DNA from: an uncultured Clostridia bacterium
GTDB lineage: Bacteria > Bacillota > Clostridia > Christensenellales > UBA1242
DNA: 64,000 nt
Reading direction: 5' to 3'
Assembly (NCBI GenBank): GCA_947584415.1
Contig: CANPWN010000002.1
Span: 27,692-91,691, forward strand
In this document: positions 22,898-35,735 of the stretch, in pieces
Layout: every line of letters starts with the position of its first letter
How positions within the stretch are numbered: the stretch's first letter is position 1
The notes under the pieces: generated by a model
Database searches by the model: none
Told to the model about the DNA's origin: nothing
What the model saw: the letters and a program-made list of their open reading frames with translations, nothing else
Position numbers and translations under genes: made by a program

Positions 22898-23665
22898 CTA
22901 TTTGGCAAAAGTTTTGGCATCAAATTTTTGCATTTTTGTGTCTTGCGACATAAGGTTAATCCTTCTGTCAAAGATGTTTTTTAGCACAAAGGTGGCATGA
23001 TTTTCATTTTTATAATAAAGATTGATTTTTTGTGGCGAAAGGTCAATCAAATTTCCAATAAGTGCCGCAGAGGATAAAATTTTTGATTTTTTGCCCTCTT
23101 CATAGATGTAATAGCCCTGTTCATCTTCCACAACAATGATTTCATCATTGCAGATATCCAGGTTGTCTATTAAAAATTTGATTAAATCAAAAAACGCGTC
23201 AGATGAGATGAGATAGTCCCGGTTTTCATTTGCCAGCCTTATAAGTTCACGCCACTTGTCCCTTAAAGGTGCAAGTTTGAACCTGTAAAAACTGTCAAGA
23301 TACAAATACTCATCAAAATTTAGTGCCTTTGAGATGATGAAATAATCTGTTTCCTTATCAAAGTTAATCAGCGCTTTTTTAAACGCCTCCAAACTCAAAA
23401 GGTCTTGCACGGGCAAAAAGAGGTGCTTGTTTAAAAAGTCCAATTTGTAATTTTGGCATATTGAAAGAGATATGATTTTTAACAGCACAACTTCTGTTTC
23501 ACTGCGTTTTAAATCATCAACTGCCACCAAAATATTGATAAAACAGCCATCTATACTTTCTGCAACAACGGCATTTAAAGGGCTTAAGTCAGCGCGCAAC
23601 ATGTCAAAAATGCTGTTTGCAACTTCGGTTTGTTTTGAGTCAAGGCTGATTGAAAATTCCCACAT
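22898..23665 (-). CDS. ytxC: YtxC-like (putative sporulation) protein
   Basis: Position immediately upstream of thrS, as for Bacillus ytxC. Patterns LDSFYRFKL..L and the C-terminal LIDLSPQKINLYY resemble YtxC. I prefer the start at MWEFSI, after GGAGAAAG. Confidence 0.5.
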   Translation of the reverse strand: MWEFSISLDSKQTEVANSIFDMLRADLSPLNAVVAESIDGCFINILVAVDDLKRSETEVVLLKIISLSICQNYKLDFLNKHLFLPVQDLLSLEAFKKALINFDKETDYFIISKALNFDEYLYLDSFYRFKLAPLRDKWRELIRLANENRDYLISSDAFFDLIKFLIDNLDICNDEIIVVEDEQGYYIYEEGKKSKILSSAALIGNLIDLSPQKINLYYKNENHATFVLKNIFDRRINLMSQDTKMQKFDAKTFAK

Positions 23666-23747
23666 AACTTTCTCCATCCCATATATGTTATGCAAGGAAG
23701 GAAAAAATACTCTGGCGATTTTTGATTTTTTTTTGAAATAAAAATTC

Positions 23748-25448
23748 TTAGTTTTTTGTTTTCTTAAGGCTGACGGCTTTGGCTTTACCATCAGTCATAA
23801 CATATTCAAGGTCGGCAATGTCATCATATTCATCAGAGTGAGTGAACATTATAACTGTTTTTGTGCGGTCGCGTTCCTTAAGATAAGATTTAACTTTGTT
23901 CCTAAAAGTTGCAGGTGCGTTTTGTGGCAATTCATATATCATAAGCACATTGCAATTTGATAATACTGCCCTCACAAGACCAATCAAAAACAATACGCCG
24001 CTTGATTTAATATCCTGAATTTGTGTGTCATAGCCAAGTGGCATTTTTTCTATGTAAGGGCTAAGTCCAACTTTTTGACATACATTTTCAACTTTTGCAA
24101 AATTTTTGCACATAAGCAAGAGGTTTTCTTTTATTGTTCCTCGCACAAATTCAGGGTGCGAGGCGCAATAATAAATGTGATGGGCAAAGTTTTTTTCATT
24201 AAATTTGTAAATGTCCAAATTGTCAAGAAGTATCATCCCGCCGTTTGGCTTAATTTGCCTTCTTAACATGTTAAAAACAAGCCTTTTCCCGCAGCCTTTG
24301 TCACCTTTGACAACATTTATTCCCTGCATTTTAAAGGACAAATCAACATTGACAAGTTTTCCAAAGTTGTCAGAGCGGATATCATCACAAGCATAACTAA
24401 CATCAATAAACCCAAGATTGTAACCCTCTGTTTTGGAGTTGAGCCTGCCAAATTTGACAAGTTGTTTGTCGTTGAGATTGAGAATAAGGTTGACCCTGTC
24501 AACATCAACACGCATGTTTTCAAGCGAATTTGTTTTGTCAAACAAAGAGTTGAGTTTTTCCGTGCAAGTGGTCAAATATGGAACAATAACAAGATAAACT
24601 GCAATGTCCAAGTCGCCTTTGGAAACAAAGAATAAAAGTAGCGCTGTTACCGCATAAACGACAATGTTCCAGATGGCAAAATAAAGGTTGTTTTTGACTG
24701 ATGAAAGCATGAAATATTTTGTCAGCGCGCCGCAATAGTCATTAACGCGGTGATTGATTTCAGAGTTATATTTCTTTCTTCCGCGGCCTTTAAATTCACT
24801 TATAACACTTTTCCCGTCAATAATTTTGTTGTAAGCATAATGCATGGCGTCTTTTTTTTCGTGCCTTAACCTCATTGCTTTGCCCATGGCTCTGTTAAGA
24901 CCATAATAAGCAAAGAAATTTGCAAAGCCCAAAGCAAGAATAATCAGCCCTGCCCAATAGTTTGCAACAAACACCATGACAAGAATAATGACAACTTGCA
25001 CAAGATATGCAATAAAACTTGCTACAACATCAGGAAAGTCGCTGAGGTTGTCCATGTTGTTAAGACTTATGTTTAAGATTTTTTCTTTGGACAAACGCTT
25101 TATTCCTGACGCTTCACAAGAGATAAGTTTGTCATATATTTTATTTGCGACTCCGACACGGATGTATGTGACTTGGTCATTATAAAATTTGTGTTGGATG
25201 TGTGCAAAAAGACTGCGTAAAATTATGGTGATAAGTTCCAGTGCAAGATTTAAAAATGCCCCGTTCCAATTGTCATTATACATGCAGTCAATTGTTCTTG
25301 CTGCAAAAATTGTGATAAGTGTTAAAAGAACGGTGTAACAAATAAAGAAAAAGATTTGCAGAGCCCAAATTTTTTTGTTTGGGTTTGCAAGGATATACCA
25401 CCTTTTGAAAAGATTTTTCTCATAGGTTGAAGTTTGCGACTTTTTCAT
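23748..25448 (-). CDS. ABC exporter-type fused permease/ATPase with degenerate nucleotide-binding motifs
   Basis: Six-TM N-terminal half and a C-terminal NBD. Walker A is GDKGCGKR, the signature is replaced by KSSGVLFL, Walker B is VLMIYE, and the H-loop is FTHSDE. Confidence 0.65.
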   Translation of the reverse strand: MKKSQTSTYEKNLFKRWYILANPNKKIWALQIFFFICYTVLLTLITIFAARTIDCMYNDNWNGAFLNLALELITIILRSLFAHIQHKFYNDQVTYIRVGVANKIYDKLISCEASGIKRLSKEKILNISLNNMDNLSDFPDVVASFIAYLVQVVIILVMVFVANYWAGLIILALGFANFFAYYGLNRAMGKAMRLRHEKKDAMHYAYNKIIDGKSVISEFKGRGRKKYNSEINHRVNDYCGALTKYFMLSSVKNNLYFAIWNIVVYAVTALLLFFVSKGDLDIAVYLVIVPYLTTCTEKLNSLFDKTNSLENMRVDVDRVNLILNLNDKQLVKFGRLNSKTEGYNLGFIDVSYACDDIRSDNFGKLVNVDLSFKMQGINVVKGDKGCGKRLVFNMLRRQIKPNGGMILLDNLDIYKFNEKNFAHHIYYCASHPEFVRGTIKENLLLMCKNFAKVENVCQKVGLSPYIEKMPLGYDTQIQDIKSSGVLFLIGLVRAVLSNCNVLMIYELPQNAPATFRNKVKSYLKERDRTKTVIMFTHSDEYDDIADLEYVMTDGKAKAVSLKKTKN

Positions 25449-26676: not shown

Positions 26677-29175
26677 TTACTTACATTGAAGTAAATTTTT
26701 GCCAGATTTTACTGAAACAGGAAGAGGGACTTTCAAATCAAGCCAATCTTCCATCTCCCTTTTTAAAAGTTTTTCCATATCATTTTCTTCGCCTGGATAA
26801 ACATCTAAAACAAGTTCGTCATGAATTTGCAGGATAAGTTCACTTTTAAAACCATTTTGTTTTAGGGCTTTTGCAACATTAAGCATGCTTTTTTTGATTA
26901 TGTCTGAGGCTGTCCCCTGAAGAGGCATGTTTAACGCCACTCTTTCTCCAAAAGAGCGAAGTTGGTGATTTGCACCGTTTATCTCCGGAATATGACGAAT
27001 TCTGCCGTATTTTGTTTTAATAAAGCCATGTTGCTTTGCAAATGCAATATTGTTTTCGGAAAAGGTTTTGACAGCGGGATAACGCGAAAAATAGGAGTCA
27101 ATATACTGCTTTGCGCTTTTTCTGGACACTTTGATGTTTTGGCTTAAGCCATAGTCGCTTATGCCATAAATAATTCCAAAATTGACCGCTTTTGCTTCCC
27201 TGCGCATTTTTGGGGTCACTTCGTCTTTGCTAACTCCAAAGATGTCTGCTGCAGTGGAAGTGTGGATATCTTCGCCGCGCTTGTAAATTTCAATCAACCT
27301 TTCTTCGTTGGACATGTCTGCAAGCAGTCTTAGTTCAATTTGATTATAGTCAGCACTTATAAGGCTGCCGCCCTCAAACTTTGAAACAAAAATTTTGCGC
27401 AGCACTTTGCCCTCTTCATCATTTGTTGGGATATTTTGAAGATTTGGGTCAGAGGAAGAAAGTCTGCCGGTGTTTGTGAGTGCTTGATTGAAAGATGTGT
27501 GAATTATGTTCCCTTTTTCCGCACAAAGTCTTTCATAAACATCAATATAGGTGGATTTAAGTTTTTGATATTTTCTGTATTGAATTATGTTTTCAACAAT
27601 TGGGTGTGAATATTTAAGGTCATTTAAAACATCAATGCCCGTTGAATTTTTTTTGTTGCCATAAGAAGTTAAGCCAAGTTTGTCAAACAATATGTGTGCC
27701 ACTTGTTTTGGTGAATTGATGTTAAACTCTTCGCCCGCAAGTTCAAGAATTTGTTTTTTGAGTTCTTCAAGCTTTTGAGTGAATTGTTCATCAATCTCTT
27801 TTAAGGAATTTTCGTCAATTTTAAAGCCGTTTTCTTCCATTTCAAACAACACTTTGCTAAGTGGTAGTTCAAGTTCAAAGTAAAGATTTTTTAATTCAAG
27901 CCTTTCAAGTTTTTCTTCAAATTGTTCCTTTAAAGCAAAGTATTCATCAGTGTTTTCCAAATCAACATTTGTGTTTTCACCCGCGTGAATAAGATAAGAT
28001 GCAAGTTTTAAATCAAAAAAGTTTTCAAGGATTATCCCATATTTTTTTAAGGTGTGCATGTCCGCCTTTGCTGCTTTTGTGATTTTTGTGATGTTTGGGT
28101 TTTCAAAATAAGGTTTAAGCGCCAAAACAACATCATCAGGCGTCAGTGAGTTTGAAAACATGTCATATTTAAGGTCCAGGCAATAAATTTCTCCACCTTT
28201 AACACTGAATTGCATGCTGGAAAGATTGTAACTAAACTCATTTTTTATTGACGAAATAAACGCATTTAAAATGGTCGGGCTTTCAATTGAAATCATCTTT
28301 TTATCTTCAGTTAAAATGGTGCTGCCAAACAAATCTTCCCTCTTTAAAAGAGAGCCGAAGCCAAAGGCTTTAAAATCCTTTTGAACGGACACAGGAAAAG
28401 GAAATGTGAAAGATGTTTTTTTAAGTTCTTCTTGAATATCCGCGTTTGTCACAATTGTGGCAAGTTTTTGCGAAAGATAAGCCATATCTTTGTCGCTTTC
28501 AAGTTTTTCCTTAAGTTTGCCGCTTATTTTGTCAATATTTGCGTAAATTCCATCTAAAGACGAAAAATCTTCCAAGAGTTTTATGGCTGTTTTTTCACCT
28601 ATTCCTTTAACTCCTGGGATATTGTCGGAGGTGTCGCCCATAAGTGCTTTAAGGTCAATAACTTGACGCGGTGAAAGATGAAACTGAGTTTTAAGTTCCC
28701 TTTCAGTCAATTTGTTGACAACACTGACGCCTTTCATTGTCAGCCACACTTCAGTTTTTGGGTCAATAAGTTGCAATAAATCTCTATCTCCTGACAAGAT
28801 GACTTTTTCACCTTCAAGAGTTTTTGCCGCTGTGCCAATGATGTCGTCTGCTTCAATTCCCTCTTTTTCAATGATGGTTATGTTCATTTTTGTCAGCAAA
28901 TCTTTGATTAAAGGAAATTGCGTTCTAAGTTCCTCTGGCATAGGCTTTCGCGTGCCTTTGTAAGCCTCATAAAGGTCATTTCGAAAGGTTTTGCGTGCGT
29001 GGTCAAAGGCAACTATGATGCCTTTTGGTTTATCTTCGGAAATAATTTTTACCAAGATGTTGACAAAGCCATAAACAGCGCCTGTTGGCCTGCCGCTTGG
29101 GTCGGACAAAAAAGGAAGTGCATAAAATGCACGGTTGGCGAGCGAGTTTCCGTCAATGATAAGAATTTTGTCCAC
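26677..29175 (-). CDS. polA: DNA polymerase I
   Basis: 5' nuclease N-terminus (LIIDGNSLANRAFYA, GDRDLLQL, GVKGIGEKTA). Pol motifs DYNQIELRLLA, RREAKAVNFGIIYG, QIHDELV. Confidence 0.95.
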   Translation of the reverse strand: MDKILIIDGNSLANRAFYALPFLSDPSGRPTGAVYGFVNILVKIISEDKPKGIIVAFDHARKTFRNDLYEAYKGTRKPMPEELRTQFPLIKDLLTKMNITIIEKEGIEADDIIGTAAKTLEGEKVILSGDRDLLQLIDPKTEVWLTMKGVSVVNKLTERELKTQFHLSPRQVIDLKALMGDTSDNIPGVKGIGEKTAIKLLEDFSSLDGIYANIDKISGKLKEKLESDKDMAYLSQKLATIVTNADIQEELKKTSFTFPFPVSVQKDFKAFGFGSLLKREDLFGSTILTEDKKMISIESPTILNAFISSIKNEFSYNLSSMQFSVKGGEIYCLDLKYDMFSNSLTPDDVVLALKPYFENPNITKITKAAKADMHTLKKYGIILENFFDLKLASYLIHAGENTNVDLENTDEYFALKEQFEEKLERLELKNLYFELELPLSKVLFEMEENGFKIDENSLKEIDEQFTQKLEELKKQILELAGEEFNINSPKQVAHILFDKLGLTSYGNKKNSTGIDVLNDLKYSHPIVENIIQYRKYQKLKSTYIDVYERLCAEKGNIIHTSFNQALTNTGRLSSSDPNLQNIPTNDEEGKVLRKIFVSKFEGGSLISADYNQIELRLLADMSNEERLIEIYKRGEDIHTSTAADIFGVSKDEVTPKMRREAKAVNFGIIYGISDYGLSQNIKVSRKSAKQYIDSYFSRYPAVKTFSENNIAFAKQHGFIKTKYGRIRHIPEINGANHQLRSFGERVALNMPLQGTASDIIKKSMLNVAKALKQNGFKSELILQIHDELVLDVYPGEENDMEKLLKREMEDWLDLKVPLPVSVKSGKNLLQCK

Positions 29176-29184
29176 ACTTTCTCC

Positions 29185-29475
29185 TTAGGCAAGACCAAAC
29201 AACCCAGCAAAATAATCTGGCATGGCAACAACAACAATGTAAAATATGGTGACAAGTATTAGTAAAATTAGCAATATGATTTTGAATATATTTCCAGTAA
29301 AGTTTGTCATGGCAAAAAGGAACAAAAGAATAACTCCGCCATACATGGAAACATATCTAAGCACCTTTCCCCAACTGCCAAGTGTTTCAAGTGAAGGCAC
29401 AGCGGCAACATAAATCATAAGGGCTATGTAAGCAATGACACAAATTGACAAAATGAAATAAATGGCTTTTTTCAT
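29185..29475 (-). CDS. Small 3-TM membrane protein, unknown function
   Basis: Three hydrophobic segments. The start overlaps the stop of the upstream gene. Confidence 0.45.
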   Translation of the reverse strand: MKKAIYFILSICVIAYIALMIYVAAVPSLETLGSWGKVLRYVSMYGGVILLFLFAMTNFTGNIFKIILLILLILVTIFYIVVVAMPDYFAGLFGLA

Positions 29476-30551
29476 CAGTTCACCTTCTTTAATTTCTTCT
29501 TTTCGTCTTTAACTTTTTCTTTTTCTTCTTTTATTTTTTCCTTCTCTTCTCTAAGTTTTTCTTTTTCTTCTTTTTTATGTTGTTTTTCAAGCAAAAGTTG
29601 GGCTTTATCTTTCTTTGGCTTTTTGTTTTTGAGAGGTTTTATTTTTGAAGATTTAACTTTGCTTTTCTTTGCCTTTTTTGAACGCTTTTTGATGACCATT
29701 TTCTTTGTTCCATCATCTGGCATAGTTTCAAGCAGGCAATCAAGGTTTTCAAACATATCTTTCCACAGCCTTAAGGTTTTTGAAAAATAAAAACCATCTG
29801 CAACGCGCTCATCCATTGTGACCGTAACATTTAAAACTTTGCCAAGTTTGAGTTCTTTGTTCCTTTCAACAACAGGTTCCATCTTTTCCTTGCCCATTGC
29901 AACAAATATGCTTGCATTACCAAAATGATAAAGGTGATGTTTTACAGCGTCAAGTTTGATTGATTTAAGGTTTGTCATAAACAGGCTGCAATGGAAACAA
30001 CTTGCCTCAATAAGTGATTTTGGCAAGCAGTTGTGCCTGTCCATCCAACGAATAAAAACCATGGCAAGACGGAAAAGCCAAGCCGGAAGTTTGCCCAAGA
30101 TATCCGCGTCTTTGGTTGTGCCATAAACAGAGTCCTCACGGGTGTTTTCATAGATGACTTTGTCCACATATTCTTTGATTTGTGGAAGACTTTCCCTGCC
30201 CGTGAAATGAAATTTAAGGTCAACATCCTCGCTTTCATCATCCAGCCTCTTTTTTGCAACCATGCTTAGCGTGATGTCCTTATGCTCATAAATTATGTTG
30301 TGATTAACAAAATAATTGAGTTTTGGGCGAAGATAAAAAAGGCGGACAAGAGATGCAATCATGATGTGTGTGTAAGTGTAATTGTTGCCAAGTTTTCTTT
30401 GGCGCGAGATAAATTCATCAATAGGCTCGCAGCGGAATTTGACATCCATATAGTTTGTTGAACTTATTCTGTCCGGCATAAAAAATGGTGCGGCCTTTGT
30501 CACAGGGTCAAGTTTTTTAACTTTTACACCATCACTTCGTTTTGAAAACAT
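29475..30551 (-). CDS. Stand-alone 2-oxoacid dehydrogenase E2/CAT-like acyltransferase-fold protein with Lys/Glu-rich tail
   Basis: C-terminal catalytic-domain pattern HHLYHFGNASIFVAMGK ... TMDERVADGFYF (the DERxxDG variant of DHRxxDG). About 75 aa of K/E-rich C-terminus. Confidence 0.55.
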   Translation of the reverse strand: MFSKRSDGVKVKKLDPVTKAAPFFMPDRISSTNYMDVKFRCEPIDEFISRQRKLGNNYTYTHIMIASLVRLFYLRPKLNYFVNHNIIYEHKDITLSMVAKKRLDDESEDVDLKFHFTGRESLPQIKEYVDKVIYENTREDSVYGTTKDADILGKLPAWLFRLAMVFIRWMDRHNCLPKSLIEASCFHCSLFMTNLKSIKLDAVKHHLYHFGNASIFVAMGKEKMEPVVERNKELKLGKVLNVTVTMDERVADGFYFSKTLRLWKDMFENLDCLLETMPDDGTKKMVIKKRSKKAKKSKVKSSKIKPLKNKKPKKDKAQLLLEKQHKKEEKEKLREEKEKIKEEKEKVKDEKKKLKKVN

Positions 30552-31942: not shown

Positions 31943-33124
31943 TCAAACATAAATTTGAAACTGTTTTTTGCCTATGTCCTTAAAAGAAAAAGTCCTGTTT
32001 TTTTTAACGCAAGTGCTTTTAATGTTGTGGCAAGAAATGATTGGAAGGCTGACATACTCTTTCCCGTTAAATATGCTTAATTTTTCAATATTTTTCATGT
32101 TGTTTAGGCAAAAATCATTTTTTCCAGTTAAAACAATTTCATCTTTTAAAAGGCCATATTTTATCTCGCTGTTTCGGTCATATTTTCCATCAAGCCAGGC
32201 CTTCATAATTTTTTCAGGCAAAATTGCGTTGATAAGTGCCTGTTTCTTTTTGTCAGATGACACAATTTTAATGTTAAAAATTTGGCTTGTTTTTATGTGT
32301 GCCATCTGCGTGAAATTTTCAATCTCTTCTCTTGACGAAAGCGAAAATTTTTCGCTGCCGAGATTGAAAAATAAAACCTTTCTTTGCTTTGCCCTAAGCG
32401 GCACTTTTGCTTTGAGATAAACTCTTGCAAAGCAGGAATTTGTAACGCTGTCAACACATGAAAAACTGAAAAAATTAAAGAAAGATGAAAAGTTGAAAAA
32501 ACTTGTTTCAAAAGTTTTTAAATTGACAATTTTGATGTGATTTAGCATTTTTTGAAAGGAATAATAGCCTTTTGGCAGTAAAAGGCTGAGTTCAACGAGG
32601 ACATTTTTTTGTTGAGAGGACAAGTTTGTAAGTTCCAGCATACAATTTCTGCCAGAAAGAAAAAATTGTCTTGAAAAATAGGCTATTTCGCCACCATTAT
32701 TATAACTTTCATAAAAACAGCCGTTGAAAGAGCCTTCCACGCGCTTGCCATCAATTTTAAGATAATTTTCTTGTTCATTTAAATCAAATTTAAAGCCCGA
32801 AGGATAGTTTATATTTAGTTTTTCAAGTTCCTTATCTTTTGAAATGATAAAATCAAGTTTTTTTGCGTTCTTACTCTCTTTTGTAAGAACAAGATTGAAT
32901 TTTTCCTCTTTTTGCGCTTTTTCAAAGCATTTTGCAAGCGTTTTTGTAAGTTGTTTTGAGAAGATAAAAACAGGAAGTGTTGGGTCAACACCATCTTTTA
33001 TCACCCTGTCAAAATCAATGATTTCATTTGTTTGTGGCGAGTGAAAGCGGACACGGTTTAAAATTAAATTTGTCATGTTAAAAATGTAATCTTTCTTTTT
33101 CATGACATAATATTTGCCCAACAT
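31943..33124 (-). CDS. Hypothetical protein (385-393 aa), no recognised domain
   Basis: Long ORF. Alternative start MKKKDYIF at 33103. No SD is evident for either start. Confidence 0.5.
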   Translation of the reverse strand: MLGKYYVMKKKDYIFNMTNLILNRVRFHSPQTNEIIDFDRVIKDGVDPTLPVFIFSKQLTKTLAKCFEKAQKEEKFNLVLTKESKNAKKLDFIISKDKELEKLNINYPSGFKFDLNEQENYLKIDGKRVEGSFNGCFYESYNNGGEIAYFSRQFFLSGRNCMLELTNLSSQQKNVLVELSLLLPKGYYSFQKMLNHIKIVNLKTFETSFFNFSSFFNFFSFSCVDSVTNSCFARVYLKAKVPLRAKQRKVLFFNLGSEKFSLSSREEIENFTQMAHIKTSQIFNIKIVSSDKKKQALINAILPEKIMKAWLDGKYDRNSEIKYGLLKDEIVLTGKNDFCLNNMKNIEKLSIFNGKEYVSLPIISCHNIKSTCVKKNRTFSFKDIGKKQFQIYV

Positions 33125-33138
33125 AACACTTTCTAAAC

Positions 33139-33160
33139 AAAAAAAACACCCTTTCGGGTG
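33139..33160 (-). terminator. Rho-independent terminator after RNase P RNA
   Basis: CACCC-gaaa-GGGTG followed by T8 on the reverse strand. Confidence 0.7.
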
Positions 33161-33161
33161 A

Positions 33162-33509
33162 ATATCAGCCTTGCATAAGCCGAGTTCTGTTTTATGTGGT
33201 CATCTATCTAGGCCTTTTGTCGCCAAAAAGCTCAAGCGGCGCTTTTGAAGGGCGCGTAAGACTTCGTTATTGCCCTTACTTAGCCTTGCATTGGGTGGGG
33301 TTTACAGAGCGAGTCATGTTGCCATAACTCCGGTGGGCTCTTACCCCACCTTTCCATCCTTACCTAAAAAATTTAGGCGGTTTATTTCTGTTGCACTTTC
33401 CTTAAAGTCACCTTCACCAGCCGTTAACTGGCACCCTGTCTTAGAATGCTCGGACTTTCCTCACTTTGCTCATCACAAGCAAACTGCGACCACTCGCTTG
33501 ACTGATATA
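33162..33509 (-). ncRNA. rnpB: RNase P RNA (bacterial type A)
   Basis: The reverse strand carries GAGGAAAGTCCGAGC (CR-I), GGGTGCCAG.TAACGGCTGG, GGAAAGTGCAACAGAAA.AAACCGCC and ACAGAACTCGGCTTAT (CR-V). P1 pairs ATATCAG with CTGATAT. Preceded by TTGACT-17-TACAAT. Confidence 0.9.
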
Positions 33510-33511
33510 AT

Positions 33512-33540
33512 ATTGTAACATATTTGACTTTAAAAGTCAA
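33512..33540 (-). promoter_or_regulatory. Putative promoter of rnpB
   Basis: TTGACT (33535-33540), a 17-nt spacer, then TACAAT (33512-33517) on the reverse strand. Confidence 0.5.
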
Positions 33541-33542
33541 CA

Positions 33543-34895
33543 TTAACTTACGGTGAAAAGCAGTTTTGTGCTTTTTTTGTCCGCAATATAACCTTGAATA
33601 AAGCCGTCCTGTGAAATTTTGAGTGATATGCCATATTTTGCGAGGTCCATGGCGGCTGCCGAACGCCCACCACCAGAGATTGAGCCCGCTTCAATTTTTA
33701 ATATTGCCCCAGCCGCCACAATTGTTCCATCAAAATCAATTATGGTCGCGCCATCCATTGCCACAATTTCTTCCCTGAGTTTGCGATTGAGTTCATGAAA
33801 TTTTTTGCCTTCAATAATCTGATTTAAGCAGACTGACTTATAGCACTTGTTCTTTTTCAAAAATTCGTCATAGCCAAGGGAATAAAACTCTCTTGTGTCA
33901 TCAGCAGAGGTGAAATTGTAAAGTTTGTTTGCCTCTTCAAGTTCAGTGACCTTTTTGAGGTCATAATATTTTTCTTGCAAGATGTCGCGTGCGTCAATGT
34001 GAGTGAGCGCGCCCTGTATCATATCTTTTTTTAGATAAACAATGATGCCGCCGTTATATCTAAAAGAAGTGTCAATTGCAGTCAAATAAATTGCCCTTCT
34101 CACATCTTTGAGTGAGTGCGGATTTCTGTAAGCAAGAAGTTGCATGACTTCTTCATGGTTGTAAATGTTCCACTGTCCGCGTCTGCGAGCGAACATGAGA
34201 AGACGGTTTTTAAAAATGAGCAGGTCACCGTTTTCAGTGAGCGCTATGCCAACTTTTTTGTCGCCACAATATTTTGCAACATAGTTGAATTCGTGCGGTG
34301 CAGTTGACGAAAATCTCCTGACTTTTGCAAGTGAAACATAGCCAATAAGATAACCCTCTCGGTTAAATTCAACAAATGAATTTTTCCCGTCTGAAAGCAG
34401 CGCAAAAAAATCACTTGAAAGCATGTTTGAAAAATGCAAAGGAAGTGGCTCGGTTTGTTCAGTGAGATTTAAAATAATTCCAAAATTTATTTTTTTGCCT
34501 TCATAAGTGCGGTTTGACCAATTTGTCAGTTCATCCACAAGTCCAAGCAAAGTTGACGATGCTGAAGGTGCAACAGTGTCGCAAATTGCTTTTTCGACAG
34601 CTTTGTCAAGCAATGTTTCTTCAAAAGAGGGGTCAAAACCGCTCTCTGCAATGTTTTTTGTTTCTCTTAAGATGTTTTTTAAAAGTGTTAATTCAGACTG
34701 CTGGAAGGCTCTGCCGCGTTTGATGACAAGCCTGTAATCAGCGTTTTTTTCTGGTTTGAGCAAAAGAGTGTTTTGCTTTCCAAGTGCAATTTCTGCTTCA
34801 CGGGTGTTTGAGTCCTCTTCACCGACAAGTTCAGAGCCTGTGAAAAGTGGAAGTATGAGTTTGTTAATCACATAGTAAAATTTCTCTTTCTTCAA
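33543..34895 (-). CDS. Hypothetical protein with divergent diadenylate-cyclase (DAC/DisA_N)-like C-terminal domain
   Basis: The C-terminus reads NGGIIVYLKKD ... AMDGATIIDFDGTIVAAGAIL ... GGGRSAAAMDLAKYGISLKISQDG. This matches the order and spacing of the DAC motifs (GALIVI / hDGAvii..g.I.AA / GTRHRAA / v.vSEE.G), but the RHR is not conserved. TTG start. A TTGCCT-17-TATTAT promoter lies upstream. Confidence 0.5.
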   Translation of the reverse strand: MKKEKFYYVINKLILPLFTGSELVGEEDSNTREAEIALGKQNTLLLKPEKNADYRLVIKRGRAFQQSELTLLKNILRETKNIAESGFDPSFEETLLDKAVEKAICDTVAPSASSTLLGLVDELTNWSNRTYEGKKINFGIILNLTEQTEPLPLHFSNMLSSDFFALLSDGKNSFVEFNREGYLIGYVSLAKVRRFSSTAPHEFNYVAKYCGDKKVGIALTENGDLLIFKNRLLMFARRRGQWNIYNHEEVMQLLAYRNPHSLKDVRRAIYLTAIDTSFRYNGGIIVYLKKDMIQGALTHIDARDILQEKYYDLKKVTELEEANKLYNFTSADDTREFYSLGYDEFLKKNKCYKSVCLNQIIEGKKFHELNRKLREEIVAMDGATIIDFDGTIVAAGAILKIEAGSISGGGRSAAAMDLAKYGISLKISQDGFIQGYIADKKSTKLLFTVS

Positions 34896-34957
34896 CCCGC
34901 TTTACCCCATTTTATATTTTGATAATATAACAAAATTTTTATTTAGGCAAGCAGATT

Positions 34958-35668
34958 TTAATTTTTTTCATAATAATTTTTTGCCAAATCATCTTTAATT
35001 AGCTCAAGTGCTTTTGCCTCAATGCGCGAAACATAACTGCGCGAAATATTGAGTTGTTTTGCAAGTTCTTTTTGTGTGTAAACTTTCTCCCCGTTAAGCC
35101 CATAGCGTTTTGTTAAAATTTCTCTTTCCCTTTTTGAGAGTTTTTTGTTGATTGACGCGTTTATCCTTTCCATCAAAAAACTTGAGTTGGCATTGTTTTC
35201 AACTTCATCTTCATCAGACTGCAAAATGTCCATAAGCAGCACTTCATTGCCCTCTTTGTCAGAAGCAAATTTTGTGTTTAAAGAAATGACATCACGGTGT
35301 TTTTTATTGACGCGAATGAGCATTAAAATTTCATTTTCAATGCATTTTGACGCATATGTTGCGAGTGCTGCGCCCTTTTCATACTTAAAACTGTCAATTG
35401 CTTTTATAAGTCCAATTGTGCCAACGGAAATTAAATCGTCAACCTCAACACTGACTGAGCCTGCATATTTTTTGACAATATGACTTACAAGCCGCAAATT
35501 GTGGGCAATAAGTTTTTTTCTTGCATCCATATCTCCCGCTTCATGATAACTTTCAAGAAGTTTTCTCTCCTCTTCCTTTGCTAGCGGCTTTGGAAAGCCC
35601 TCAACATTATTTATAAATGCAGTAAAACACCTAAGTTTGCTTAAAAAAAACGGTAATGTTTCAAACAC
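34958..35668 (-). CDS. sigK: Sporulation sigma factor, pro-SigK-like
   Basis: FPKPL after a ~25-aa pro-sequence, then IAHNLRLVSHIVKKY, DLISVGTIGLIKAIDSF, KCIENEILM, and a region 4 HTH. I prefer the GTG start at 35668, after AAAGGAGTG. Confidence 0.65.
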   Translation of the reverse strand: MFETLPFFLSKLRCFTAFINNVEGFPKPLAKEEERKLLESYHEAGDMDARKKLIAHNLRLVSHIVKKYAGSVSVEVDDLISVGTIGLIKAIDSFKYEKGAALATYASKCIENEILMLIRVNKKHRDVISLNTKFASDKEGNEVLLMDILQSDEDEVENNANSSFLMERINASINKKLSKREREILTKRYGLNGEKVYTQKELAKQLNISRSYVSRIEAKALELIKDDLAKNYYEKN

Positions 35669-35735
35669 AATTTCACTCCTTTCAGCAAAATATATGTCGA
35701 AAATTGCCGTTTTTTGCTTGGACACATCTTAAATC

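Follow-up and report, generated by a model that had tools for sequence, protein, structure and literature searches.

A DAC-like protein with a variant active site, encoded between sigK and rnpB in an uncultured Clostridia bacterium: an unnamed family of candidate nucleotide cyclases

Synthesis of cyclic di-AMP (c-di-AMP) is attributed to well-catalogued classes of diadenylate cyclases (DACs), and genome surveys count these enzymes by means of the Pfam DisA_N model. The DGA and TRHR positions of canonical DACs make contact with the nucleotide at its ribose and phosphates, and the acidic residue of the S-E-E motif, as described in the structural literature on CdaA, has a metal-binding role. A census from 2023 by Galperin reportedly covers 22 DAC families and catalogues other sensor-DAC architectures. 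The present analysis concerns a 64,000-nucleotide window (the whole stretch of DNA that was analysed) from an uncultured Clostridia bacterium, positions 27,692 to 91,691 of contig CANPWN010000002.1. It encodes a protein of 450 amino acids (aa) whose C-terminal part resembles a DAC domain and whose active-site motifs recall those of PanS. This protein is referred to below as the DAC-like protein, and all coordinates are those of the window.

In DacA, contacts with the nucleotide are made by T207, which precedes the RHR motif, and by D176/G177 (PMC6368335). PanS, a minimal DAC with DGF and GGR motifs, makes 3'3'-cUA or c-di-AMP; its residues D71, G72, G107 and R108 contact the product, and no product is formed once DGF or GGR is mutated (bioRxiv 10.64898/2026.08.10.743927). 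Since PanS is active with GGR, loss of RHR does not imply loss of activity.

The evidence tips modestly in favour of the DAC-like protein being a soluble, cytosolic, N-terminally regulated nucleotide cyclase of a new DAC class, with a PanS-like G-G-R variant of the active site; this reading draws on sequence, structural models and analogy. Two DAC domains would meet face to face, the arrangement seen in other DACs, and the paired domains would condense two nucleoside triphosphates (NTPs) to a cyclic dinucleotide. This dinucleotide might be c-di-AMP, or a different one such as cUA if the analogy with GGR-type PanS enzymes applies, and the N-terminal module would control pairing or sense an input. 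The gene would be a stable core-genome gene in this lineage, with its own sigma-A-type promoter just downstream of sigK and no terminator between the two. Vegetative expression is probable, and read-through from sigK late in sporulation could also occur. Catalysis, dimerisation and product are what we infer from the evidence given below.

The gene is located at 33543-34895 on the minus strand and forms a complete open reading frame (ORF) with a TTG start codon, a stop codon at 33543-33545 and a GGGG ribosome-binding site about 9 nt upstream of the TTG. The translation is 100% identical to database protein P0001, and homologues share its start position, MEKEKFY. The 450-aa ORF given in the preliminary description, which a model had made from the letters alone, is thus real. 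No transmembrane segment was found, the maximum 19-residue Kyte-Doolittle mean being 1.44, inside the DAC core, and the protein is predicted to be soluble and cytosolic.

The C-terminal domain (residues 259-450; 33546..34121, minus strand) was recognised as DAC (DisA_N)-like by Foldseek, by Pfam scans of relatives with PF02457 and by hhalign against a CdaA profile. The AlphaFold2 model of the window protein had a pLDDT of 78.8. When this model was compared with the PDB by Foldseek, ranks 1-15 were all DisA or CdaA, with probabilities of 0.98-1.00 and E values of 1.4e-3 to 4.9e-2. These matches extended over about 202 aligned columns, with a target-normalised TM-score of 0.43-0.53 for DAC-only chains, and below rank 15 the probability was at most 0.2. 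The comparison with CdaA and DisA structures that had been proposed at the outset therefore returned a DAC fold.

The Pfam DAC model (gathering cut-off 27 bits; matches counted at E ≤ 0.1 for the diverse set) was found in 5 of 24 close relatives and in 30 of 114 diverse relatives, with a best E value of 4.8e-7. Just one relative, P0055 (28.1 bits), scored above the cut-off, and another, P0064 (26.9 bits), was 0.1 bit short of it; profile positions 44-96 of 119, the DGA-to-SEE core, were aligned. For the profile comparison, residues 101-273 of Listeria monocytogenes CdaA, a query verified as 100% identical to 6hvl/4rv7, served as the starting point, and the CdaA profile was built from 120 database sequences. 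The C-terminal domain of the family aligned with it at P=8e-4, in a register that places D381-G382-A383 on D171-G172-A173 of CdaA, GGGRSAA on GTRHRAA and S428 on S222, with a gap opposite E224. The agreement of independent methods supports a DAC fold in the C-terminal ~190 residues, as a remote relationship. The divergent DAC-like domain proposed earlier is upheld by PF02457 on the relatives, by Foldseek and by motif conservation.

The active-site motifs could be read from the translation in the order and spacing of DAC motifs, as had been claimed. They are DGA (D381-G382-A383; 33747..33755), which is also placed by the CdaA alignment; GGGR (G408-R411; 33663..33674), which the hhalign register sets at the canonical G-T-R-H-R position; and SQDG (S428-G431; 33603..33614), the putative counterpart of canonical VSEETG, in which D430 may stand in for E224; all are on the minus strand. 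Conservation was determined in 139 diverse members, 25-44% identical to the window protein. Residues D381, G382, G409, R411 and S428 were invariant (139/139). A383 was kept in 131 members, A413 in 131, A414 in 133, K426 in 137, D430 in 138 and G431 in 134, while position 410 was G in 119 and A in 19. The family signature is [ILMV]-D-G-A ... G-[GA]-R-x-A-A ... K-[IV]-S-x-D-G.

At the RHR site the window protein reads GGGRS, and R411 is the sole Arg kept there. RHR was found at that site in 0 of the 139 members, so the earlier observation that DGA is kept and RHR replaced applies to the family as a whole. Judged from these alignments, the absence of RHR is a fixed family trait and not decay. Near-invariance of DGA, G-G/A-R and S-x-D at such low overall identity points to purifying selection on a working site, not to a decayed pseudo-enzyme. 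A six-frame search of the window and 90 loci revealed no canonical DAC signature, G[TSA]RH[RK], near DGA or DGG.

The DAC-like domain is interrupted between its first strand and the DGA strand by a subfamily-specific helical insertion of about 43 residues (308-350; 33846..33974, minus strand), with helices predicted at 308-324, 328-337 and 342-348. In an alignment of 144 family members, over half show a gap at residues ~308-350. An insertion of ~60 aa had been described; the segment is real, and measured against its own family it comprises ~43 residues, the larger figure being closer to its size relative to CdaA.

The N-terminal ~260 residues comprise, according to the structural model, two confidently modelled, family-specific domains. 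An AlphaFold2 model of residues 1-260 alone reached a pLDDT of 84.8 and a pTM of 0.83. Domain A (residues 1-127; 34515..34895, minus strand) is modelled as a helix, a four-stranded sheet and three long helices, with conserved LPLF.G and R.Q.F...E motifs. Domain B (residues 128-258; 34122..34514, minus strand) is modelled as alpha/beta. In 139 sequences its residues E132 (in the WS..TYEG motif), P200 and W242 were as invariant as the catalytic residues, and R238 (in the FAKRRG.W motif) was kept in at least 90% of members.

Foldseek searches of the PDB and BFVD yielded no significant match to the 1-260 model. The highest probability, 0.30, was to longin/COPI-zeta-like folds, and other matches, also weak, were roadblock/PAS-like. 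Robl_LC7 matched domain A in 2 of 114 members at E ~0.01, and DACNK as the identity of domain B was rejected, with one match at E=0.13 among 138 members. The N-terminal 260 residues, in which no motif had been recognised at first reading, likewise gave no match in Pfam, NCBIfam, PADLOC or the PDB. The suggestion of a sensor-fused signalling protein of an undescribed subfamily is the best fit among those made in the preliminary description.

A second, degenerate DAC copy in this region had also been proposed. The secondary-structure elements of domain B run b-a-a-b-b-a-b-b-b-b, an order that parallels the DAC domain, and hhalign aligned domain B with the C-terminal domain at P=0.014 in the very register proposed; 0 of 150 column shuffles reached this score (z-score ~3.4). 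Domain B also aligned with CdaA at P=0.027, LTENGDLLIF being paired with VSEETGGISL. On the other side, a Foldseek search with the 1-260 model retrieved no DAC from either the PDB or BFVD, and the "SDG" that had been matched to DGA is S-N-G in most family members. The weak profile similarity and the shared order of elements thus stand, the structural search does not bear the proposal out, and the duplication is unproven. That domain B is a very degenerate second DAC copy is a tentative idea, appreciably less probable than its opposite.

The DAC-like protein had been called an orphan, which did not hold. At least 554 homologues were identified by a word-indexed search, the best 120 of them full length and 52-100% identical. 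A separate exhaustive profile search over 1.84 billion cluster representatives (50% identity) yielded 1254 representatives at E ≤ 1e-3 and 397 at E ≤ 1e-30. By this sequence measure the family numbers no fewer than 1254 such clusters; it is unnamed in the current protein-family databases searched (Pfam, NCBIfam and PADLOC).

The 80 closest loci in reference genomes belong to uncultured gut Clostridia (Christensenella-like, Ca. Caccovivens and Ca. Caccopulliclostridium). Beyond Bacillota, members occur in Bipolaricaulota and on plasmids of Alphaproteobacteria. Distant members include one protein from a Ca. Bipolaricaulota metagenome-assembled genome, named by NCBI solely for its apparently fused HU domain, and plasmid-borne proteins of Agrobacterium vitis, Paracoccus albus and Vescimonas fastidiosa, each annotated "hypothetical protein". 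Most distant members have ~400-420 aa and match the window protein in two stretches that leave out the insertion. No relatives were found in IMG/VR viral contigs in a scan with the alignment of close relatives.

Apparent N-terminal fusions were observed in two members. P0179 (NCBI MFC2108516.1, L095 6001-7569; NCBI name "HU family DNA-binding protein") carries an HU domain at residues 1-89 (E 1.2e-24), and P0136 (L096 5198-7021) a Schlafen AlbA_2 domain at residues 26-147 (E 6.5e-7).

The genomic contexts of about 12 distant members were sampled, and mobile or defence-type surroundings were often seen. On the A. vitis plasmid pRvVAT039d, the gene for WP_235678681.1 is convergent with a complete type II CBASS operon (L091 8369-12771) encoding a patatin-like phospholipase, a DncV-like CD-NTase, a ThiF/E1-like protein and a JAB/MPN protein. 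The Bipolaricaulota copy lies among genes for an integrase, DUF4365, Mrr_cat, a large helicase and TerB, P0187 near a resolvase and ParE/RelB, and the V. fastidiosa plasmid copy near conjugation genes. On P. albus plasmid p2, the copy (L092 7001-8122) is flanked by IS1380 and IS3 transposases and truncated just past the DGA strand; it is probably a pseudogene.

Other neighbourhoods were of different kinds. At L087 5001-8613, in one distant lineage, 8 bp separate the P0124 gene from a downstream gene for an AddB-like PD-(D/E)XK nuclease, which is followed by a UvrD/AddA-type helicase gene; the spacing suggests co-transcription with a double-strand-break repair operon. P0145 neighbours a Ser/Thr kinase, and P0200 a stand-alone gene of the LuxR/GerE type, encoding a helix-turn-helix (HTH) protein, and uvrC. 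Identification of the 68-aa neighbour of P0200 as GerE was rejected, and it can be described only as a generic LuxR/GerE-type HTH protein.

In the window, the gene lies between sigK (34958..35725, minus strand; NF004471, 273 bits against a cut-off of 252) and the RNase P RNA gene rnpB (33161..33505, minus strand; RF00010, 275.7 bits), as had been stated with pro-sigK for the former. The order of genes, all on the minus strand, is plsX, rnc, smc, ftsY, sigK, the DAC-like gene, rnpB, a 393-aa gene, rarA, a 358-aa gene and polA, and base composition is uniform across the region around the DAC-like gene. Among 80 related loci in reference Clostridia genomes, sigK was directly upstream on the same strand in 73 and rnpB downstream in 68. 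The whole ~11-kb region is syntenic, the order smc-ftsY-sigK-X-rnpB-...-polA being kept in up to 80 Clostridia genomes, and adjacency to sigK alone is for this reason weak evidence of coupling. The pair of sigK and the DAC-like gene persists in eight loci (L063-L065, L067, L069, L077, L079 and the short L070) in which, of the neighbours tested, sigK only was detected, or sigK and rnpB in L070 and L077.

A sigma-A-type promoter-like site, TTGCCT-17-TATTAT (34922..34950, minus strand; 9/12 matches in a pattern scan), lies within the 62 bp that separate the gene from sigK. The scan found 6 sites in the region against 5.3 expected, so that the site alone carries no above-chance signal. Sites of the sigma-A type, TTGCAA/TTGACA-17-TATACT/TAAAAT, recur upstream of the orthologue in most relatives. 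The promoter that had been ascribed to the gene thus exists at 34950..34922 and has counterparts in relatives, while taken by itself it is at chance level. No sigma-K- or sigma-E-like CATA -10 element was seen upstream of the orthologues, and the pattern scan found no terminator-like site between sigK and the DAC-like gene.

Several observations weigh against an active cyclase. The window protein itself gave no Pfam match even at E ≤ 10, DAC (PF02457) included, so its homology has to be drawn through relatives; the suggested check against that model came out negative for the protein and gave matches at E ≤ 0.1 for the 30 diverse relatives mentioned above. HMMER searches of the PDB with the window protein and two family profiles returned no DAC chain, because the homology is too remote for profile-to-sequence comparison; their matches to phosphoglycerate kinase, Arp8 and TNFAIP8 were at chance level and were rejected. 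Residues 247-279, in the first half of the DAC-like domain, were modelled poorly (pLDDT < 50), and the hhalign register of R411 against R203/H204/R205 of CdaA is uncertain. Of RHR, the family lacks the His and the second Arg, and an RHR-to-AAA mutant of CdaM is inactive (PMC13022847). No conserved partner, receptor or effector gene was found in the related or distant loci examined. The earlier premise that RHR is needed accordingly holds for canonical enzymes, as the CdaM mutant illustrates, and fails as a divider between active and inactive domains, PanS being active.

When these points are considered, the domain might bind ATP, c-di-AMP or another nucleotide without cyclisation and act as a nucleotide-responsive regulator or scaffold. 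Such a pseudo-enzyme or receptor is unlikely, though it deserves attention. It would fit the reduction of RHR to a single Arg in all 139 members, given that canonical DACs are inactive once RHR is mutated, as well as the weak Pfam similarity, confined to less than half of the DAC profile, and the large family-specific N-terminal module; domain B, if a degenerate duplicate, might moreover occupy the DAC partner face. It is opposed by the nature of the invariant residues, which are those marked as catalytically important by the CdaA alignment (the DGA Asp, the Gly-Arg loop and Ser-x-Asp), by the activity of GGR-type PanS enzymes, and by the fact that pure binding sites usually vary more than 139/139 identity at five positions would allow. 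A different emphasis, compatible with an N-terminally regulated cyclase, is that the family consists mainly of single-gene, mobile conflict or defence sensors of phage or DNA, of which the window copy would be a domesticated chromosomal descendant. The CBASS operon beside the A. vitis copy, the surroundings of the Bipolaricaulota copy, the resolvase and ParE/RelB near P0187, the truncated Paracoccus copy between insertion sequence (IS) elements, the member directly upstream of addB/addA and the two apparent DNA-binding fusions (HU and Schlafen AlbA_2) all point in this direction, and DAC domains are now known in the defence systems DS-2C and PanS. Nevertheless, this is improbable: the window protein had no match in PADLOC and only 13 bits against a cut-off of 630 for NCBIfam DS2_3, no conserved effector partner occurred in any context examined, no relatives were found in IMG/VR viral contigs with the alignment of close relatives, the window copy sits in a uniformly composed, deeply syntenic core region, and the distant contexts sampled number just ~12.

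A cyclase specific to sporulation, coupled to sigK and working late in the mother cell as a functional counterpart of CdaS, is more doubtful still. It could draw on the position of sigK immediately upstream on the same strand in 73/80 loci, including the eight loci with sigK alone or sigK and rnpB, on the lack of a terminator between the two genes, and on the GerE/LuxR-type HTH gene that a distant member follows. The recurrent upstream promoter is, however, of the sigma-A type (TTGCAA-17-TATACT) and not sigma-K or sigma-E, adjacency says little given the synteny across all 11 kb, identification of the small HTH protein as GerE is not justified, and the neighbours of the other distant members are unrelated. 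The family also occurs in Bipolaricaulota and Alphaproteobacteria, which are not known as endospore formers. The cyclase reading can finally be widened to an overlooked, widespread class of the DAC superfamily, with an invariant DGA/G-G-R/S-x-D site, a signal that is possibly not c-di-AMP, and a two-domain sensor that includes an ancient degenerate DAC duplicate. Its members would be mobile, single-gene sensors of DNA or phage, domesticated beside sigK in one lineage of gut Clostridia; as a whole, this composite picture is regarded as improbable.

Several features of the flanking genes were recorded in addition. A strong rnpB promoter-like site, TTGACT-17-TACAAT with a TG extension (33540..33512, minus strand), lies within 33507-33540 and begins 2 nt past the stop codon of the DAC-like gene, and a stem-loop with a T-run terminator (33147-33160, minus strand) directly follows the RNase P RNA. 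The 393-aa ORF downstream of rnpB (31943-33124, minus strand), located in the lowest-GC kilobase of the region (32%), had no Pfam or NCBIfam match. It was found in synteny in 60 of 80 relatives at just 28-53% identity, and therefore evolves much faster than its neighbours. The 358-aa ORF (29475-30551, minus strand) is syntenic at 40-82% identity and has no NCBIfam name; its sole match (residues 217-273, E 3.8e-7) was partial and fell at the C-terminal end of the 2-oxoacid dehydrogenase acyltransferase catalytic domain.

The listed SigK ORF has a GTG start ~18 residues ahead of the alignment with the SigK family models, and ~37 residues precede the conserved FP.PL, which suggests that the pro-sequence is long or else that the true start lies further downstream. 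A 297-aa ORF (22898-23791, minus strand) gave a sub-threshold Pfam match to the sporulation-related YtxC (31.3 bits, cut-off 33.1). Taken with the presence of sigK, this sequence match is consistent with a spore-forming host.

Compared with known systems, the family signature and the 260-residue N-terminal module have, as far as sequence and model comparisons reach, no counterpart in Pfam (2025), NCBIfam (2026), PADLOC (2023) or the PDB. The DAC superfamily itself is a known kind, and most members of the family escape the Pfam DAC model by sequence. As the family mostly escapes DisA_N and yet keeps a strict variant site, surveys of cyclic-dinucleotide makers, gut Clostridia included, may be incomplete. 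The N-terminal 260 residues are unexplored ground, a confidently folded model that matches no solved structure.

The homologous catalytic domain is C-terminal both in the window protein and in CdaA/DacA (PF02457; L. monocytogenes CdaA, PDB 4rv7/6hvl). At its N-terminus, CdaA carries three transmembrane helices (PF19293), and its GTRHR and SEETG motifs are complete. In contrast, the window protein is predicted to be soluble, carries GGGR and SQDG and a 43-residue insertion, and lies below the Pfam threshold; PF19293 had no match in it in the Pfam scan. DisA gave the best structural matches to the window model (9y9y, 9y4s and 3c1y), and the two family members with apparent DNA-binding fusions offer a loose parallel to it. 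DisA begins with its DAC domain, which contains RHR, and continues with a helical linker and a helix-hairpin-helix (HhH) DNA-binding domain, whereas the DAC-like domain of the window protein is C-terminal (259-450) and no HhH or other Pfam domain was detected.

The design of the window protein, with uncharacterised, presumed sensor domains ahead of a C-terminal DAC, is shared by DS-2C (DACNG + DACNH + DAC; the CBASS-like DS-2) and by the other catalogued sensor-DAC architectures; DS-2C keeps select residues of DGA and RHR. NCBIfam NF053872 (DS2_3_antiphage) aligned only with residues 368-403 of the window protein, in the DGA region, at 13.3 bits where the cut-off is 630, and no Pfam match to DACNG or DACNH was obtained in the window protein or the 138 members scanned.

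The active-site motifs resemble those of PanS from the Panoptoo anti-phage system (Ragucci, Haley & Kranzusch, bioRxiv 2026, 10.64898/2026.08.10.743927). The DAC fold is common to both, and in both, as compared by the motif description in the preprint, RHR is replaced by a glycine-rich G-G-R loop and D-G-x is kept. PanS has ~150 aa, consists of the DAC domain only, reads DGF and shares a two-gene operon with an S2TM-beta effector. The window protein, in contrast, has 450 aa with a 260-residue N-terminal module, reads DGA and is encoded beside sigK and rnpB; an effector-like neighbour as in Panoptoo was absent from every related locus examined. GGR-type DACs make cUA besides c-di-AMP, and the DAC-like family is, by this comparison, a candidate for a new nucleotide signal or regulatory input.

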